Below, in pieces: positions 46,369-54,017 of a stretch of DNA of 64,000 nucleotides (the first letter of the stretch is position 1; the number at the start of each line of letters is the position of its first letter). Source of the DNA: Escherichia coli. Lineage in GTDB: Bacteria; Pseudomonadota; Gammaproteobacteria; Enterobacterales; Enterobacteriaceae. Below the pieces are notes generated by a model that saw nothing but the letters and a program-made list of their open reading frames with translations, searched no databases and was not told the DNA's origin. Position numbers and translations under genes: made by a program. The stretch lies in assembly GCF_044647545.1 (NCBI RefSeq), contig NZ_CP172818.1, one strand, 5' to 3'.

Positions 46369-49300
46369 ATGAGCAAACAATCACAGCATGTATTAATTGC
46401 CCTGCCCCACCCGCTGCTTCACCTGGTCAGTTTAGGTTTAGTCTCGTTTATCTTCACCCTTTTCTCACTTGAGCTTTCGCAGTTTGGCACCCAACTCGCC
46501 CCACTGTGGTTCCCGACGTCCATCATGATGGTGGCGTTTTATCGCCATGCCGGGCGCATGTGGCCGGGGATTGCGCTGAGCTGCTCGCTGGGAAATATCG
46601 CCGCATCCATCCTGCTTTTTTCCACCAGCTCGCTGAACATGACCTGGACGACCATCAATATTGTTGAAGCCGTGGTCGGGGCAGTGCTACTGCGTAAATT
46701 GCTGCCGTGGTATAACCCATTGCAAAATCTGGCTGACTGGCTGCGTCTGGCACTCGGCAGCGCCATTGTTCCACCTCTGTTAGGGGGTGTTCTGGTTATC
46801 CTGCTGACGCCCGGAGACGATCCTCTCAGGGCATTTTTGATATGGGTACTGTCAGAATCCATCGGCGCACTGGCACTGGTGCCGCTGGGATTGTTATTTA
46901 AACCACACTATCTGCTGCGCCATCGCAACCCACGGTTGCTTTTTGAGTCGCTGCTCACGTTAGCCATCACACTGACGTTAAGCTGGCTTTCGATGCTGTA
47001 TCTGCCGTGGCCTTTTACTTTCATTATTGTGCTGTTGATGTGGAGCGCCGTGCGCCTGCCACGAATGGAAGCCTTTTTGATCTTCCTTACCACGGTGATG
47101 ATGGTGTCACTGATGATGGCCGCTGATCCCTCCCTGCTTGCTACGCCGCGTACATACCTGATGAGCCATATGCCGTGGCTACCGTTTTTGCTGATCCTGC
47201 TGCCCGCCAACATCATGACCATGGTGATGTATGCCTTTCGTGCGGAACGCAAACACATTTCCGAAAGCGAAACCCGTTTTCGTAATGCCATGGAATATTC
47301 CGCCATCGGCATGGCATTAGTGGGCACCGAGGGGCAATGGCTGCAATCCAACAAAGCACTCTGCCAGTTTCTCGGTTACAGTCAGGAAGAACTGCGCGGA
47401 CTCACCTTTCAGCAACTGACCTGGCCGGAGGATCTCAATAAAGATCTGCAACAGGTTGAAAAGCTGATCAGCGGTGAAATAAACACCTATTCAATGGAAA
47501 AACGCTACTACAACCGCAATGGCGATGTTGTCTGGGCGTTGCTTGCCGTCTCACTGGTGCGCCACACCGATGGTACGCCGCTCTATTTTATCGCTCAGAT
47601 TGAAGACATTAACGAGCTAAAACGCACCGAACAGGTGAATCAGCAACTGATGGAGCGCATCACGCTGGCTAACGAAGCGGGCGGGATTGGCATCTGGGAG
47701 TGGGAGCTTAAGCCGAATATTTTTAGCTGGGATAAGCGGATGTTCGAGCTGTATGAAATTCCTCCGCATATCAAACCGAACTGGCAGGTGTGGTACGAGT
47801 GCGTGCTGCCGGAAGATCGCCAGCATGCCGAAAAAGTGATTCGCGATTCATTGCAATCGCGCTCTCCCTTTAAACTGGAATTTCGCATTGCCGTGAAAGA
47901 TGGCATCCGCCATATCCGCGCCCTCGCCAACCGGGTACTGAATAAAGAAGGCGAAGTCGAACGTCTGCTCGGCATTAATATGGATATGACCGAGGTTAAA
48001 CAGCTTAACGAGGCATTGTTTCAGGAAAAAGAGCGCCTGCACATTACGCTTGATTCCATCGGTGAAGCCGTGGTCTGTATTGATATGGCGATGAAAATTA
48101 CCTTTATGAATCCGGTGGCGGAGAAGATGAGCGGCTGGACGCAGGAAGAAGCGTTAGGTGTTCCACTCCTGACGGTGTTGCATATTACTTTTGGCGACAA
48201 CGGACCATTAATGGAGAACATTTACAGTGCCGACACCTCACGTTCCGCGATTGAACAAGATGTGGTGTTGCACTGCCGAAGCGGCGGCAGCTACGACGTG
48301 CATTACAGTATTACGCCGTTAAGTACTCTGGATGGCAGCAATATTGGTTCGGTTCTGGTGATTCAGGACGTCACCGAATCGCGCAAAATGCTGCGCCAGC
48401 TGAGCTACAGCGCCTCCCATGATGCACTGACGCATCTCGCCAATCGAGCCAGTTTTGAGAAGCAACTACGCATCCTGCTGCAAACGGTAAACAGTACACA
48501 TCAGCGACATGCACTGGTGTTTATCGATCTTGATCGCTTTAAAGCGGTGAATGACAGCGCCGGGCACGCCGCTGGCGACGCTTTACTGCGCGAACTGGCG
48601 TCATTGATGCTGAGTATGCTGCGCTCCAGCGACGTGCTGGCGCGACTCGGTGGCGATGAATTTGGTCTGCTGCTGCCAGATTGTAATGTCGAAAGTGCGC
48701 GTTTTATCGCTACACGCATTATCAGCGCCGTGAATGACTATCACTTTATCTGGGAAGGACGAGTACATCGGGTAGGTGCCAGTGCCGGGATTACCTTGAT
48801 TGATGACAACAATCATCAGGCGGCTGAAGTGATGTCGCAGGCTGATATCGCCTGTTATGCCTCCAAAAATGGTGGACGGGGCCGGGTGACGGTTTACGAA
48901 CCGCAGCAAGCTGCCACAAATAGCGAACGGGCGGTGATGTCGCTTGATGAACAGTGGCGGATGATTAAAGAGAATCAGTTGATGATGATCGCCCACGGTG
49001 TCGCTTCGCCGCGGATCCCGCAAGCGCGTAATTTGTGGCTGATTTCACTTAAGCTCTGGAGTTGCGAAGGCGAGATTATTGATGAACAAACATTTCGTCG
49101 TAGCTTCAGCGATCCGGCACTTAGCCATGCTCTTGACCGACGGGTATTCCACGATTTTTTCCAGCAGACCGCAAAAGCGATTGCCAGTAAAGGCTTAAGC
49201 ATCGCCCTCCCCCTTTCCGTTGCCGGTTTGAGTAGCGCCACGCTGGTGAATGAACTACTTGAGCAGCTGGAAAATAGCCCTCTACCACCACGGTTATTAC

Positions 49301-49686
49301 ATCTGATTATTCCGGCAGACGCGATTTTAGATCACGCAGAAAGCGTGCAAAAACTGCGGCTGGCGGGATGTCGGATCGTATTCAGTCAGGTGGGCCGCGA
49401 TCTGCAAATCTTCAACTCGTTGAAAGCAAATATGGCAGATTACCTGCTACTTGATGGTGAGTTATGCGCCAACGTGCAGGGAAATTTGATGGATGAGATG
49501 CTGATTACGATCATTCAGGGGCACGCTCAGCGACTCGGGATGAAAACCATCGCCGGGCCAGTCGTTTTACCCTTAGTGATGGATACGCTTTCTGGCATCG
49601 GCGTCGATCTGATTTATGGCGATGTGATTGCCGATGCCCAACCGCTGGATTTGCTGGTGAATAGCAGTTATTTCGCGATTAACTAA
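46369..49686 (+). CDS. dgcE: Diguanylate cyclase DgcE (YegE): N-terminal membrane domain, PAS repeats, GGDEF domain, degenerate EAL-like C-terminus
   Basis: 1105-aa ORF; GGDEF motif in RLGGDEFGLL; C-terminal region lacks the canonical EAL active-site motifs. Confidence 0.9.
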   Translation: MSKQSQHVLIALPHPLLHLVSLGLVSFIFTLFSLELSQFGTQLAPLWFPTSIMMVAFYRHAGRMWPGIALSCSLGNIAASILLFSTSSLNMTWTTINIVEAVVGAVLLRKLLPWYNPLQNLADWLRLALGSAIVPPLLGGVLVILLTPGDDPLRAFLIWVLSESIGALALVPLGLLFKPHYLLRHRNPRLLFESLLTLAITLTLSWLSMLYLPWPFTFIIVLLMWSAVRLPRMEAFLIFLTTVMMVSLMMAADPSLLATPRTYLMSHMPWLPFLLILLPANIMTMVMYAFRAERKHISESETRFRNAMEYSAIGMALVGTEGQWLQSNKALCQFLGYSQEELRGLTFQQLTWPEDLNKDLQQVEKLISGEINTYSMEKRYYNRNGDVVWALLAVSLVRHTDGTPLYFIAQIEDINELKRTEQVNQQLMERITLANEAGGIGIWEWELKPNIFSWDKRMFELYEIPPHIKPNWQVWYECVLPEDRQHAEKVIRDSLQSRSPFKLEFRIAVKDGIRHIRALANRVLNKEGEVERLLGINMDMTEVKQLNEALFQEKERLHITLDSIGEAVVCIDMAMKITFMNPVAEKMSGWTQEEALGVPLLTVLHITFGDNGPLMENIYSADTSRSAIEQDVVLHCRSGGSYDVHYSITPLSTLDGSNIGSVLVIQDVTESRKMLRQLSYSASHDALTHLANRASFEKQLRILLQTVNSTHQRHALVFIDLDRFKAVNDSAGHAAGDALLRELASLMLSMLRSSDVLARLGGDEFGLLLPDCNVESARFIATRIISAVNDYHFIWEGRVHRVGASAGITLIDDNNHQAAEVMSQADIACYASKNGGRGRVTVYEPQQAATNSERAVMSLDEQWRMIKENQLMMIAHGVASPRIPQARNLWLISLKLWSCEGEIIDEQTFRRSFSDPALSHALDRRVFHDFFQQTAKAIASKGLSIALPLSVAGLSSATLVNELLEQLENSPLPPRLLHLIIPADAILDHAESVQKLRLAGCRIVFSQVGRDLQIFNSLKANMADYLLLDGELCANVQGNLMDEMLITIIQGHAQRLGMKTIAGPVVLPLVMDTLSGIGVDLIYGDVIADAQPLDLLVNSSYFAIN

Positions 49687-49702
49687 GGCGTGCTTCCCCA
49701 TC

Positions 49703-49727
49703 GCCTGATGCGACGTATCAGGCCTAC
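49703..49727. repeat. REP-like palindrome between convergent dgcE and alkA
   Basis: gcctgatgcgacgtatcaggcctac; stem cctgat/atcagg; overlaps the alkA stop codon. Confidence 0.5.
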
Positions 49728-50578
49728 AATTCGGCTTCGTCTGGTTGCCAGCCTTCCGTATACCAGATATGCAACAGCGCATAAGAACGCCAGGGCTTCC
49801 AGCGTTCGGCATAACGGCGGATTTGTGCCGGTGTCATTCCCGGAAATCGCTGTTTAATCAGATAATCATCCGGCAGGAAAACATCTTTCGCCTGCCAGCC
49901 GCGCAAGGCGAAATAATTCGCCGTCCAGCGCCCGATACCCGGAAAAGTTTGAAGCGTTTTCATCGCTTGCTCTACGTCGCCCGGAATTGTCATTGATAAG
50001 GTGCCCTCCAGCGCCGCATTTGCCAGATGAATCAGTGCCTCTGCCCGTTTCAACGGCATACCTAACGCTTTTAATGCCTGCGGGTCGGCTGCAGCCAGCC
50101 GCTGAGGCGTGGGGAAGCAGACATAATCCGGAAAATCATCCAGCCGTTCGCCATAAAGCTGTGCCACTCTGGCGGTCAATTTTGCCGCCATCGCCACGCT
50201 CACCAGTTGGCCTAAAATCGCCCGCACGCCCTGCTCAAAAACATCAACACAACCAGGTAAACGCAATCCGGGCCGCGCTGCGCCTAACTCGCCCAACGCC
50301 CCATTAACAATCTGCGGGTTACATTGCAGATCAAACAGGCGGCTCATTTTCGCCAGACACTCAGCGGCAACAGGTTCTAAACCTGCACTTAAATTTATGT
50401 GCAGAGTATGGCTGGCTATATCCGGAATAGCAGTCACCACGCCGCGATATTCGCCCACCGCCAGACTACGGGCATAATAATCGTCAGCGACCGTTTCCAC
50501 ACCGTTCACCGCACGGGCGGCGAGAAATCCCAACATCCACGACCAGTCATATGGCGGCTGCCAGTTCAGGGTATACAT
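49724..50578 (-). CDS. alkA: DNA-3-methyladenine glycosylase II
   Basis: 284-aa ORF MYTLNWQPPYDWSWMLGFLAARAV...; recognised as AlkA. Confidence 0.9.
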   Translation of the reverse strand: MYTLNWQPPYDWSWMLGFLAARAVNGVETVADDYYARSLAVGEYRGVVTAIPDIASHTLHINLSAGLEPVAAECLAKMSRLFDLQCNPQIVNGALGELGAARPGLRLPGCVDVFEQGVRAILGQLVSVAMAAKLTARVAQLYGERLDDFPDYVCFPTPQRLAAADPQALKALGMPLKRAEALIHLANAALEGTLSMTIPGDVEQAMKTLQTFPGIGRWTANYFALRGWQAKDVFLPDDYLIKQRFPGMTPAQIRRYAERWKPWRSYALLHIWYTEGWQPDEAEL

Positions 50579-50630
50579 CGCATCTCCTTTTTAATCCGCT
50601 TTCAGCATAAACGTTATTCAGACGCTACGC

Positions 50631-50638
50631 TTTGCTTT
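50631..50638 (-). promoter_or_regulatory. Candidate Ada box in the alkA promoter
   Basis: Minus strand reads AAAGCAAA about 55 bp upstream of the alkA start; matches the Ada-binding motif known for alkA. Confidence 0.4.
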
Positions 50639-50711
50639 CATATTCCGGTTGTCGCGACGGCAACATTTCGCTAAAGTCTCGCCCCTTCTTCACCGGCATG
50701 GGGATTATTTC

Positions 50712-52064
50712 GTGTTTATTGGTTTTGATTACGGTACAGCAAACTGTTCAGTGGCGGTCATGCGCGACGGTAAGCCGCAATTACTGAAAATGGAAAACGA
50801 CAGCACGCTGCTGCCTTCAATGCTTTGCGCGCCAACGCGTGAAGCGGTAAGCGAATGGCTGTACCGCTATCATGATGTTCCGGCAGACGACGATGAAACG
50901 CAGGCGCTGCTGCGTCGGGCGATTCGTTATAACCGCGAAGAAGATATCGATGTTACGGCGAAAAGCGTGCAGTTCGGTCTTTCCTCACTGGCACAGTACA
51001 TTGATGATCCAGAAGAAGTGTGGTTTGTGAAATCACCAAAATCGTTCCTCGGTGCCAGCGGCTTAAAACCGCAGCAGGTAGCGCTGTTTGAGGATCTGGT
51101 CTGCGCAATGATGTTGCACATTCGCCAGCAGGCACAGGCGCAATTGCCAGAAGCGATTACCCAGGCGGTGATTGGTCGCCCGATCAACTTCCAGGGGCTG
51201 GGCGGCGATGAAGCAAACGCCCAGGCACAAGGGATTCTGGAGCGCGCAGCGAAGCGTGCCGGGTTTAAGGACGTGGTATTCCAGTACGAGCCGGTGGCGG
51301 CTGGGCTGGATTACGAAGCCACCTTGCAGGAAGAAAAACGGGTGCTGGTGGTGGATATTGGTGGTGGTACGACTGACTGTTCTTTACTGCTAATGGGGCC
51401 ACAGTGGCGTTCGCGCCTCGATCGTGAAGCCAGCCTGCTGGGTCACAGTGGTTGCCGTATTGGCGGTAACGATCTGGATATCGCACTGGCGTTTAAAAAC
51501 CTGATGCCGTTACTGGGCATGGGTGGCGAAACCGAAAAAGGCATCGCCCTGCCGATTCTGCCGTGGTGGAATGCGGTTGCCATCAACGACGTCCCTGCGC
51601 AAAGTGATTTCTACAGTAGTGCCAATGGTCGTCTGCTTAACGATCTGGTACGCGATGCCCGCGAACCGGAAAAAGTGGCCCTGTTACAGAAAGTCTGGCG
51701 TCAGCGTTTAAGCTATCGCCTGGTGCGCAGCGCGGAAGAGAGCAAAATCGCCCTTTCCAGCGCAGCGGAAACCCGCGCATCGCTGCCGTTTATCAGCGAT
51801 GAACTGGCAACGCTGATTAGCCAACAGGGGCTGGAAAACGCCCTCAGTCAGCCGCTGGCGCGAATTCTGGAACAGGTGCAACTGGCGCTGGATAACGCCC
51901 AGGAAAAACCGGATGTCATCTATCTGACTGGTGGTAGCGCCCGATCGCCGCTGATTAAAAAAGCGCTGGCAGAACAGTTGCCGGGCATTCCGATTGCAGG
52001 CGGCGATGACTTTGGCTCCGTCACCGCCGGGCTGGCACGCTGGGCGGAAGTGGTATTTCGTTAA
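50712..52064 (+). CDS. yegD: Hsp70-family (actin-like ATPase) protein YegD, 450 aa, GTG start
   Basis: ORF 50649-52064; start placed at GTG 50712 (FIGFDYGTANCSVAV) to match known length; Hsp70 ATPase motifs (DIGGGTTD). Confidence 0.85.
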   Translation: MFIGFDYGTANCSVAVMRDGKPQLLKMENDSTLLPSMLCAPTREAVSEWLYRYHDVPADDDETQALLRRAIRYNREEDIDVTAKSVQFGLSSLAQYIDDPEEVWFVKSPKSFLGASGLKPQQVALFEDLVCAMMLHIRQQAQAQLPEAITQAVIGRPINFQGLGGDEANAQAQGILERAAKRAGFKDVVFQYEPVAAGLDYEATLQEEKRVLVVDIGGGTTDCSLLLMGPQWRSRLDREASLLGHSGCRIGGNDLDIALAFKNLMPLLGMGGETEKGIALPILPWWNAVAINDVPAQSDFYSSANGRLLNDLVRDAREPEKVALLQKVWRQRLSYRLVRSAEESKIALSSAAETRASLPFISDELATLISQQGLENALSQPLARILEQVQLALDNAQEKPDVIYLTGGSARSPLIKKALAEQLPGIPIAGGDDFGSVTAGLARWAEVVFR

Positions 52065-52073
52065 TTGAAAAAT

Positions 52074-52117
52074 GGCTCAGCAGCGGCTTAAATCAGCCTG
52101 CGCCTGAGCCAGTTTTT
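52074..52117 (+). terminator. Candidate yegD terminator embedded in the 3' end of convergent yegI
   Basis: Stem ggctcag/ctgagcc (52074-52110) followed by agtttttc; yegD and yegI stops are only 12 bp apart. Confidence 0.4.
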
Positions 52118-54017
52118 CTGCCGCCTGACGTAACGGTTCCATCAACGGCATGGTCCGTGCTGGAGCTTGAAGGCGGAATCGCTGCAACTCTGTCGCGCCG
52201 ACAGTCAACGTCGATTCCAGCCGATGTCGTTTGGCGGCCATTTTAGTCAGTACCGCTTGTCTGTCTGCAGGCGTTACCGCTTCGTTCGGCCTGAAAACAA
52301 AACGGCGTTCGCAACTCGCTTTCCAGTCGATAACCGCCTGGGTCAGATGATCACCAAAACCTTTTACTTGCTTAACGCTCCGTCGGGTAACGTCTGCCGC
52401 CGTTTCAATACCAAAGGACCGTAACGCCGCTTTACGCGCAGGGCCAACGCCGGGAATAGAGGCAACATCAATAAAAAATCCCTCCAGAAACTTCTGCTTC
52501 TGCCGTTCCCTTGCGGTGTCCTGAAGTGCTGCCAGATCGCGCTTTTCTTCTTCCGGTAACCCAAGAATTTCGTCCTTCATTTTTTCGAGCATCGTCCGTT
52601 TGGCGATAAAACCTTCCAGCCCGCCCAACTGTTGGATCTGGCTGACTAAATGGTCATAGTCCATTTTTGCGCGATTAAAAGCCTCTCTTCGTTGCTGGAT
52701 TTCTGCTTTGTACGCTTTGCTTGTCAGGCTGCCAATAATCCAGATAGCCGACAGCACAGGAACCAAAATAATATAACGTGGTTCTGTCTGAAGGCCGCAA
52801 AGCAACAGCGATAACGCTGACAGTGCGATCTCAATCAGAATGATGTATTCACGCCTTAACAGGCCTAAAGGAAGCGGCCTGCCAGTCGGTTGGAAATGAT
52901 CGGGTAATGGCAGTTGCAATGCTGGCGGTGCTACTGACGCCATCACCATCGCCCAGACTTTCGCCAGCACAAAATCACCGCTGGTGGTAATGACCTCTTC
53001 GCCGAGATCAATAAAATAGATAACGCCTTGATTATCCAGAGCACACCACGGGCAGTCAGCCAAATGACCGGGATAAACATGCATTGCCGAAACGGTACAT
53101 TTCTTTAACTGTTGGCGTAGTAAATCAAGTGCCGCTACCCACGCTTTTGCCGTCGGACGCCCGGTTGCCACGCCACTTTCCGTGAATGCCTGCTGAAACA
53201 TGGCTTCAACATCGCCCGGTAACATCGACAGCGGAATAGATCGTGGCGGCGGTTTTAAACCACGTCGCTGATTATCTGACGCGTAGGCATAACGGAAATG
53301 GGCAATATCCGTCTCCAGCGCATTACCCGCATCAGAGATAAGCGGTACACCGGAATAAGGATGCCGACCACCAAACAAGACGTGAAAAATCAGCAACGCA
53401 AGGCCAAAATTATCGTGATTCGCGGTGCGTTCAAAGCCAACAAATGACGACAAGGTTTGCAGCTCTGGCGACGTAAAATGCGACACGCCCACTTCGCATA
53501 AATGCAGCGTTCCATTGGCGTTAATCTGAAAGGAGTCGCTATCAATCAACACCACTTTGCTGTCACGGCCTACCATAAAGCTGTTCTGGTTTACGTCACC
53601 CACGACGTGCCCGTGCTCGTGAATCGTAGCAAAAGATGAAGCAATATTGCGCGCAACATAGAGTAGAAAATCCCACGCACAATGAGGGTAACGTTGACGA
53701 CGATGTGCCGGGCTATAGATCATATGAATCGGTTCTTTACCAGAAACTTTTGGCATCATAAAACCGATAACCTTTCCGCCTCGTCCACCGTGAAGCGTTG
53801 CCTGCGGCCAGGCGACATAATTCAACAATTGCGCGTCAGCTGTCGCAGCCATAAAGGCAAGTTTGTCCTGTTTTAAGGCGGGTGGCGGCGTGTGATAAAT
53901 CTTGGCGACGCTATCGACAAACTCCTCGATATCATAAACCGCACCTTCGCCGCCTTTGCCCAGTTCACGGCCAGGCGTAACGCACTCACCAGTAGCAGTA
54001 TATAAAGTGGGTTTCAT
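52077..54017 (-). CDS. yegI: Hanks-type Ser/Thr protein kinase-like protein YegI (kinase-like N-domain, two predicted TM helices, C-terminal helix-hairpin-helix-like motif)
   Basis: ORF 52077-54053; start placed at [11 protein letters not shown] (Met13), alternative start at 54053; Gly-rich loop GKGGEGAVYD; HhH-like PGVGPARKAALRSFG. Confidence 0.8.
   Translation of the reverse strand: MKPTLYTATGECVTPGRELGKGGEGAVYDIEEFVDSVAKIYHTPPPALKQDKLAFMAATADAQLLNYVAWPQATLHGGRGGKVIGFMMPKVSGKEPIHMIYSPAHRRQRYPHCAWDFLLYVARNIASSFATIHEHGHVVGDVNQNSFMVGRDSKVVLIDSDSFQINANGTLHLCEVGVSHFTSPELQTLSSFVGFERTANHDNFGLALLIFHVLFGGRHPYSGVPLISDAGNALETDIAHFRYAYASDNQRRGLKPPPRSIPLSMLPGDVEAMFQQAFTESGVATGRPTAKAWVAALDLLRQQLKKCTVSAMHVYPGHLADCPWCALDNQGVIYFIDLGEEVITTSGDFVLAKVWAMVMASVAPPALQLPLPDHFQPTGRPLPLGLLRREYIILIEIALSALSLLLCGLQTEPRYIILVPVLSAIWIIGSLTSKAYKAEIQQRREAFNRAKMDYDHLVSQIQQLGGLEGFIAKRTMLEKMKDEILGLPEEEKRDLAALQDTARERQKQKFLEGFFIDVASIPGVGPARKAALRSFGIETAADVTRRSVKQVKGFGDHLTQAVIDWKASCERRFVFRPNEAVTPADRQAVLTKMAAKRHRLESTLTVGATELQRFRLQAPARTMPLMEPLRQAAEKLAQAQADLSRC

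Follow-up and report, generated by a model that had tools for sequence, protein, structure and literature searches.

DgcE is the main Escherichia coli diguanylate cyclase triggering production of the curli and cellulose matrix. Its gene in the window (the whole stretch of 64,000 nucleotides analysed here) raises the question of whether the C-terminal part of the protein, which occupies the place of an EAL phosphodiesterase domain, can degrade c-di-GMP and, if it cannot, what it does instead. The open reading frame at 46369..49686 (plus strand) begins with ATG and, according to the list of reading frames and its translation, encodes 1105 amino acids plus a stop. It is dgcE (yegE), with 100% DNA identity to the annotated dgcE of several complete E. 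coli genomes, and the gene is present in 5416 of 5426 genomes. The protein scores 2065 bits against the NCBIfam equivalog model NF007298 (PRK09776; cut-off 1135), residues 1–1105 aligning to profile positions 1–1111, and both this match and the chromosomal position between udk and alkA, an arrangement as in K-12, place it in the DgcE/YegE orthologue group. BLAST against K-12 is collinear over 42863–53038, and K-12 DgcE (YegE, b2067) has the same length of 1105 aa, the same domain order and the same neighbours, with 98.4% amino acid identity; 14 of the 18 substitutions (among 1105 residues) lie within residues 850–1085, and all 18 leave the motif positions discussed below untouched. In FDAARGOS_497, dgcE is 100% identical but the O-antigen region differs, IS110 is absent and the register breaks in alkA; its annotation was applied only within the BLAST-collinear part. 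On the dgcE strand, scans of the udk–dgcE and dgcE–alkA intergenic regions for promoter and terminator consensus sequences yielded no match beyond what shuffled sequence would give.

DgcE starts with MASE1, continues with three PAS domains and ends with GGDEF followed by EAL, all encoded on the plus strand. The MASE1 membrane domain (residues 19–294; 46423..47250) matches Pfam PF05231 with 123.8 bits, and the three PAS domains (approximately residues 299–675; 47263..48393) are recognized by the Pfam PAS, PAS_3, PAS_4 and PAS_9 models and by TIGR00229 on three stretches. The GGDEF domain (residues 682–838; 48412..48882) covers profile positions 1–160 of 161 in PF00990, with 155.7 bits. Direct reading places the A-site GGDEF at residues 761–765 (48649..48663), within the RLGGDEFGLL that the earlier note had correctly pointed out in this 1105-aa frame, and the RxxD-type I-site RSSD at residues 752–755 (48622..48633), five residues upstream of it; both sites are tabulated identically for dgcE in PMC11327459. 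The cyclase domain is thus intact, being complete and carrying the GG(D/E)EF signature of active cyclases, and published work has found that DgcE output needs the GGDEF motif and that c-di-GMP falls on deletion of dgcE (PMC6510439; PMC5635695; PMC13031359).

Downstream of the cyclase lies a degenerate EAL-fold domain of about 240 aa, EALdeg (residues ~859–1099; 48943..49665, plus strand), delimited with AlphaFold2, Foldseek and Pfam. Pfam PF00563 matches residues 898–1088 at E = 1e-19, its 71.3 bits exceeding the gathering cut-off of 31.3, over profile positions 39–234 of 236, so that the match begins downstream of the profile's EAL-motif region, and the score justifies the description of this part as EAL-like. 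The AlphaFold2 model (pLDDT 88, pTM 0.85) forms a barrel of alternating strands and helices, resembling the TIM-barrel-like EAL fold. A Foldseek search with this model gave 105 PDB matches at E ≤ 0.001, and all 50 of the 50 listed are EAL-domain structures, with those of FimX, RbdA, LapD, RocR and TBD1265 at E-values of 1e-12 to 5e-15 and TM-scores of about 0.7–0.8. Taken together, profile match and predicted structure indicate that the C-terminal ~240 aa of DgcE are a true EAL homologue in which the fold is kept.

The catalytic residues are a different matter, as neither the canonical EAL nor the DDFGTG motif occurs in the last 260 aa. In a MAFFT alignment of the DgcE C-terminus with the active phosphodiesterases PdeL, PdeH and PdeR, a large spurious gap falls over the EAL-motif region, and hhalign of the DgcE family against active EAL domains is uninformative on this motif because it covers only residues 908–1102. 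Because of the spurious gap, the register was taken from the phmmer alignment to FimX and from alignments of the family profile to RbdA and to two structures of FimX. These put L891-I892-S893-L894-K895, within NLWLISLKLW, at the EALxR position (49039..49053, plus strand, as for all features that follow), L891 and K895 corresponding to E141 and R145 of PdeL. The register carries an ambiguity of one residue, MAFFT being shifted by one, so that either L891 or I892 replaces the glutamate; direct inspection found no acidic residue anywhere in residues 885–898. The metal-binding asparagine (PdeL N200) is replaced by P948 in ALPLS (49204..49218; hhalign and the MAFFT column table). LHLIIPADAIL (residues 977–987; 49297..49329) aligns to the ELTE motif by hhalign, MAFFT and the RbdA alignments, with I980 and A983 in place of PdeL E232 and E235, and SQVGRD (residues 1006–1011; 49384..49401) aligns to DDFGTG by phmmer, hhalign, MAFFT and profile-to-PDB comparison, with S1006 and Q1007 in place of D262 and D263; each of the two strings occurs once in DgcE. 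By both hhalign and MAFFT, L1027 in YLLLD (49441..49455) stands for the catalytic lysine (PdeL K283), G1063 and V1066 in IAGPVV (49549..49566) for E319 and E322 of the AEGVE motif, and Y1083 in IYGD (49612..49623) for the conserved glutamine (PdeL Q339). The earlier note was therefore right in assigning SQVGRD to the DDFGTG position, whereas the profile–profile, MAFFT and profile-to-PDB alignments move LHLIIPADAIL from the EAL motif, where L891-I892-S893 belongs, to the second and third glutamates further downstream.

Altogether, in comparison with PdeL, PdeH, PdeR and solved EAL structures, 0 of 11 catalytic, metal-binding or substrate-binding positions are kept in EALdeg, and the defining elements of an active phosphodiesterase (Glu and Arg of the EAL motif, the Asn, ELTE, DDFGTG, the KxD Lys, EGVE and the QG Gln) are absent. 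PdeL, PdeH and PdeR keep all 11 residues, except for a valine at the arginine position of PdeH. The sole conservative replacement in DgcE is at that same arginine position, where K895 is an arginine in most orthologues; this is a point against a domain unable to bind c-di-GMP, the equivalent arginine having a central part in how the receptor LapD binds it. Judged by alignment and model, EALdeg lacks every residue for metal binding, water activation and c-di-GMP hydrolysis, and since the catalytic residues are all lost it would be unable to degrade the c-di-GMP made by the adjoining GGDEF domain. RbdA (PA0861; PDB 5XGB), an active phosphodiesterase, illustrates the difference. It is the best profile match to DgcE over GGDEF plus EAL (E = 2e-41) and shares the PAS-GGDEF-EAL layout, but its EAL domain is the active one and has ELL...R, EVTE, DDF, KID and AEFVE...QG, every one of them replaced in DgcE. 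A reading of EALdeg as an active phosphodiesterase was rejected, with none of the 11 functional residues intact. Of the two things that the earlier note held would together speak against its claim, a confident EAL match was found and intact catalytic residues were not.

A function for such a domain has been proposed on genetic grounds. Pfiffer, Sarenko, Possling and Hengge (2019, PLoS Genet; PMC6510439) showed this 'EALdeg' domain to be inhibitory and described it as counteracting DgcE oligomerization. In that work its deletion hyper-activated the DgcE pathway, with matrix overproduction resembling a pdeR mutant, the isolated domain dimerized in two-hybrid assays, SDS-resistant DgcE oligomers built up when it was missing, and the effect was independent of MASE1 and of RdcA/RdcB (PMC6510439). 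These data agree with the replaced residues, the kept fold and the purifying selection documented below, which supports the earlier suggestion of a non-catalytic regulatory domain. We consider it very probable (roughly 85%) that the gene is dgcE and that its product ends in a catalytically dead EAL-fold domain acting as an autoinhibitory module. EALdeg would have been kept in this role and, following the mechanism in the literature, may self-associate and oppose assembly into higher-order oligomers that bring the GGDEF domains of DgcE into productive pairs; cyclase output would therefore be set by the balance between the EALdeg brake and activation via MASE1 (with RdcA/RdcB) and the PAS region. 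The anti-oligomerization mechanism has the status of a hypothesis, for which deletion phenotypes and immunoblots, rather than structures, are the source.

The degenerate EAL proteins YdiV/RflP and BluF work by contacting other proteins. EALdeg could likewise be mainly a docking surface for partners from the c-di-GMP 'supermodule' (PdeR, DgcM and several phosphodiesterases), with autoinhibition as a secondary effect, a proposal that fits with conserved motifs of its own that are unrelated to catalysis. Of the GGDEF/EAL proteins of E. coli, moreover, five are interaction hubs, and DgcE is one of them, with PdeR and several phosphodiesterases among its contacts, but in the part of PMC5635695 considered here these contacts are not assigned to a particular DgcE domain, and deletion of EALdeg leads to hyper-activation rather than to lost signalling to PdeR (PMC6510439). 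We regard docking as the main role as unlikely. Docking as such is compatible with autoinhibition.

A still less likely alternative is that EALdeg is a receptor that binds c-di-GMP without hydrolysing it and thereby provides product feedback on the cyclase. Its appeal lies in FimX (Pseudomonas aeruginosa and Xanthomonas; PDB 3HV8, 4J40, 4FOU, 7LKQ), a degenerate EAL receptor of c-di-GMP that is among the best solved sequence matches of DgcE and among the top fold matches listed; the nearest solved relatives by both measures are its receptor-type degenerate EAL domains. FimX has the same GGDEF-EAL tandem with a non-catalytic EAL, and its SQFGCS at the DDFG position resembles the SQVG of DgcE. 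LapD (PDB 3PJT, 3PJW), a degenerate autoinhibited receptor whose signalling state is set by EAL dimerization and intramolecular contacts, is also among the listed fold matches (TM 0.76–0.84); it too is a membrane-anchored GGDEF-EAL protein, and the EALxR arginine, at whose position DgcE keeps a basic residue, sits in the middle of the site where LapD holds c-di-GMP. FimX, however, keeps the residues that contact c-di-GMP, namely the EVL Glu, the Arg, the KID Lys, the FVE Glu and the QG Gln. At the corresponding positions DgcE carries L, K, L, V and Y, and of the set it retains nothing but a basic residue in place of the arginine. Inspection of these residues suggests that EALdeg does not bind c-di-GMP, as Pfiffer et al. 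also noted that its c-di-GMP-binding residues are not conserved (PMC6510439), and the intact RSSD I-site of the GGDEF domain already gives product feedback. The partner domains differ as well: the GGDEF domain is degenerate in FimX and inactive in LapD, a c-di-GMP-binding protein that passes its signal outward to a protease in the periplasm, whereas that of DgcE is predicted to be active and restrained by its EAL domain.

The available orthologues and alleles point to a retained function of EALdeg. The homologue search returned mostly gene fragments, with enough full-coverage orthologues to assess conservation and no bridging active EALs. Across genera, EALdeg is 45–66% identical, less than the GGDEF domain at 68–86%. 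Enterobacterial orthologues with as little as 39% identity still carry the degenerate residues, which shows the degenerate state to be ancient within Enterobacteriaceae, and all eleven degenerate positions are identical in the six intact E. coli alleles compared. Invariant blocks of EALdeg in the orthologues (RLLHL, GC, VGR, LMDEM, IIQGHAQR, IAGP, SYFAI) persist as non-catalytic motifs at 39–65% identity. In DgcE, RLLHL lies at residues 975–979, VGRD at 1008–1011, LMDEM at 1040–1044 and IIQGHAQR at 1048–1055. Among the six alleles, 34 of 44 variable amino acid positions (77%) fall in the last 263 residues, which make up 24% of the length, and synonymous change shows no excess in EALdeg. The dN/dS ratio of the C-terminal region is 0.26, against 0.02 for the rest of DgcE; EALdeg is thus under purifying selection, with dN/dS below 1, and the constraint is comparatively weak, because the ratio exceeds that of the remaining protein ~13-fold. 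The idea of a functionless relic drifting neutrally, to which this excess of variable positions, the raised dN/dS and the lower identity across genera might seem to point, has next to no chance of being correct and was rejected, since the ratio is well under 1, the six intact alleles have no stop codon within EALdeg (two frameshifted alleles are broken in MASE1), the non-catalytic motifs are conserved, the model is confidently folded and the deletion has a clear phenotype (PMC6510439).

The degenerate EAL domain of DgcE and its inhibitory role are already known, matching Pfiffer et al. 2019 (PMC6510439); in c-di-GMP research the domain is textbook material and its inhibitory role has been worked out genetically, and both carry little weight as a discovery. 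The case serves rather as a clean positive control, a pseudo-enzyme domain recognized from sequence alone, to which the present re-analysis adds a residue-by-residue tabulation, a corrected motif assignment and the antiquity of the degenerate state in Enterobacteriaceae. A modest new observation is that EALdeg is the polymorphism hotspot of DgcE, which could guide allele-swap work on strain differences in biofilm formation. Tentatively, and with the odds against it, EALdeg might be a fast-evolving 'tuning knob', allelic variants of the brake setting strain-specific thresholds for DgcE oligomerization and, through it, for the making of curli and cellulose; secondarily, the conserved Lys/Arg of the EALxR position might reflect residual binding of a nucleotide ligand.

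The single long open reading frame at 46369..49686 on the plus strand (1105 codons with an ATG start in the window's ORF list) is dgcE, formerly yegE. Its DNA is 100% identical to annotated dgcE in several complete E. coli genomes, homologues are encoded in 5416 of 5426 complete genomes of the species, and the product scores 2065 bits along its entire length against the NCBI equivalog model for the DgcE cyclase (cut-off 1135), displaying every feature tested for membership of the orthologue group. Of the 1105 residues of the protein, 18 are different in K-12 DgcE, and the gene neighborhood is arranged as at K-12 b2067, with asmA, dcd and udk (minus) upstream and alkA (minus) followed by yegD, yegI, pphC and yegL downstream. 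We are therefore dealing with the known DgcE system itself and not a mere lookalike. Its degenerate EAL domain is already known and is taken as established in PMC13031359, PMC11327459 and PMC5635695, which leave the picture unchanged; mildly new are only the corrected motif assignment, the retention of Lys/Arg by orthologues at the EALxR position, and the clustering of amino-acid polymorphism in the C-terminal domain.

Pfam recognizes a MASE1 domain (residues 19–294, 123.8 bits), PAS-family matches (residues ~299–675, resolved as three stretches by TIGR00229), a complete GGDEF domain (682–838, 155.7 bits, profile positions 1–160 of 161) and an EAL domain (898–1088, E = 1e-19, with 71.3 bits well above the gathering score of 31.3). 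The clear GGDEF motif reported in the earlier note is borne out, with the A-site GGDEF (761–765) and the RxxD I-site (RSSD, 752–755, five residues upstream of GGDEF) both intact and tabulated identically in PMC11327459. The EAL match starts at profile position 39, leaving the N-terminal part of the profile uncovered. An AlphaFold2 model of residues 840–1105, built from an alignment of 13 orthologues (mean pLDDT 88, pTM 0.85), shows strands and helices alternating as in a barrel, and its two N-terminal strands (871–879 and 889–897) correspond to the YQP and EAL strands left out of the Pfam alignment. A Foldseek search of the PDB with the model gave 105 matches at E ≤ 0.001, the best 50 of which are all EAL-domain structures (E = 5e-15 to 1e-11, TM 0.7–0.8); FimX, RbdA/PA0861, LapD, RocR, TBD1265, MorA, PA3825 and Bd1971 are among the matches listed. 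Both sequence match and predicted fold thus place the C-terminus in the EAL superfamily, as a true EAL domain by homology and predicted structure.

The DgcE family was compared with three experimentally established E. coli phosphodiesterases from the K-12 genome, PdeL/YahA, PdeH and PdeR, aligned together, using hhalign profile-profile alignment (probability 96%) and a joint MAFFT alignment; in a third comparison, the family profile was aligned to PDB sequences. Relative to PdeL, E141 of the EAL motif is replaced by L891, R145 by K895, N200 by P948, E232 by I980, E235 by A983, D262 by S1006, D263 by Q1007, K283 by L1027, E319 by G1063, E322 by V1066 and Q339 by Y1083. The canonical residue is found at all eleven positions in the three active enzymes, except that PdeH has Val at the Arg position. 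The alignments disagree by one residue on the register of the EAL motif (L891/K895 by phmmer with FimX and by profile alignments to FimX and RbdA, I892/L896 by MAFFT), which is immaterial to the conclusion because residues 885–898 include no acidic residue. None of the three residue groups that define active EAL phosphodiesterases is present and, judged from these alignments, the domain would be unable to act as a phosphodiesterase. The degeneracy proposed in the earlier note accordingly holds, the EAL match being confident and its catalytic residues lost. The motifs that it quoted, RLGGDEFGLL, LHLIIPADAIL and SQVGRD, all occur exactly so in the translated frame, and SQVGRD does take the place of DDFGTG, whereas LHLIIPADAIL corresponds not to EAL but to ELTE, with the second and third glutamates; the true EAL-motif position is L-I-S inside NLWLISLKLW.

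Fragments of orthologues from enterobacteria, Salmonella among them, span the whole EAL-like domain at 39–65% identity and are all degenerate alike: Asn is replaced by P/A/T, the Asp pair by S/T plus Q/H, Lys by L/M/I/V, the first Glu of EGVE by G, and Gln by Y/F. They also share (near-)invariant blocks of their own, namely RLLHL, GC, VGR, LMDEM, IIQGHAQR, IAGP and, at the C-terminus, SYFAI(N/H). The degenerate state is thus ancient, and the domain has gained conserved features of its own. In most orthologues, Arg occupies the position of E. coli K895, so the basic character of the EALxR arginine position is conserved. Across genera, the EAL-like domain is 45–66% identical, compared with 68–86% for the GGDEF segment. 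Among six intact E. coli alleles (window, K-12 and four others), mean pairwise dN/dS is 0.26 for residues 843–1105 and 0.02 for residues 1–842, with 34 of 263 and 10 of 842 amino-acid positions variable, respectively (p = 9e-12 by a Fisher test comparing non-synonymous with other variable sites); all eleven motif-equivalent positions are invariant. Synonymous divergence is not raised in the C-terminal region (dS 0.089 vs 0.114), which rules out an imported divergent segment. The domain is thus less constrained than the enzymatic and sensory domains, yet clearly under purifying selection, as expected for a regulatory pseudo-enzyme domain.

Pfiffer et al. (PMC6510439) found that deletion of this degenerate EAL-fold domain (EALdeg) causes matrix over-production comparable to that of a pdeR mutant, that isolated EALdeg dimerizes in two-hybrid assays, that SDS-resistant DgcE oligomers appear or increase without it, and that inhibition by EALdeg does not depend on MASE1 or on the GTPase activator RdcA/RdcB; in their model, EALdeg disturbs productive oligomerization of the PAS3-GGDEF part. 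We adopt this model as the best explanation: taking the loss of catalysis from the present analysis and autoinhibition from the published genetics, we infer a steric mechanism whereby EALdeg, without catalysis, would counteract productive PAS3-GGDEF oligomerization. The residue losses and purifying selection found here, together with the inhibitory role from those genetics, support the non-catalytic regulatory domain that the earlier note had proposed. It is conceivable, if rather unlikely, that EALdeg is a fast-evolving tuning module setting strain-specific DgcE output. A primary role as docking surface for PdeR, DgcM or phosphodiesterases would fit the standing of DgcE as an interaction hub (PMC5635695) and leave room for autoinhibition as well; we consider it improbable. 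Less probable still is a c-di-GMP receptor in the manner of FimX or LapD: FimX is among the nearest solved relatives and shares the SQ(F/V)G motif, and a basic residue is kept at a position central to the LapD binding site, but the motif Glu, Lys, FVE Glu and Gln kept by FimX are all lost in DgcE and the intact I-site already supplies product feedback; by its residues, EALdeg would not be a receptor-type degenerate EAL. The idea of a neutral relic conflicts with a dN/dS below 1, with the conserved motifs, with the confidently predicted fold and with the deletion phenotype (PMC6510439).

Of eight E. coli dgcE copies sampled, those in NZ_OW968288.1 and NZ_CP101522.1 (O157:H7) are annotated as frameshifted pseudogenes; one has an extra G after nt 413, within a G-run, and the other an extra A after nt 457, both in the MASE1 region, and another record holds just the first 34% of the gene; these disrupted copies are consistent with the dgcE pseudogenes published for pathogenic lineages (PMC11327459). 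Collinear identity with strain FDAARGOS_497, whose dgcE is identical, stops at 49734, in the alkA 3' end, 48 bp past the dgcE stop codon, and dS along dgcE varies about 3-fold (0.05 in MASE1, 0.17 in GGDEF); together these suggest a recombination mosaic at the locus. The spacer between the convergent dgcE and alkA genes (49687–49723) is just 37 bp, compared with 108 bp including additional REP-like sequence in K-12; it holds a REP-like hairpin, GCCTGAT-GCGACGT-ATCAGGC, and no canonical terminator was detected in it.

Elsewhere in the window, yegH and asmA have between them a ~500-bp segment (42360–42862) that K-12 lacks. It contains a 60-aa frame (42349–42531, plus strand) that corresponds to a RelE/ParE-family toxin in truncated form and bears a pseudogene annotation in FDAARGOS_497. 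A ~330-bp patch at 42480–42810, rich in homopolymers (G7, A8, C6, T6), with an AT-rich tail and no intact ORF, aligns at just ~60–70% identity to an antitoxin-like helix-turn-helix gene found in other strains of E. coli, both flanks being essentially identical. The window version of the patch occurs in none of the ~910 complete E. coli genomes with this segment (best full-length match 80.8%), and it has the appearance of either poor-quality sequence in the source assembly or a pseudogene with many mutations. Finally, BLAST aligns no part of the O-antigen gene cluster region (4165–12909) with the O1-type cluster of FDAARGOS_497, whereas the flanks of the region (1–4164 and 12910–42172) are 99.98–99.99% identical to that strain, which suggests replacement of the serotype cluster by recombination.
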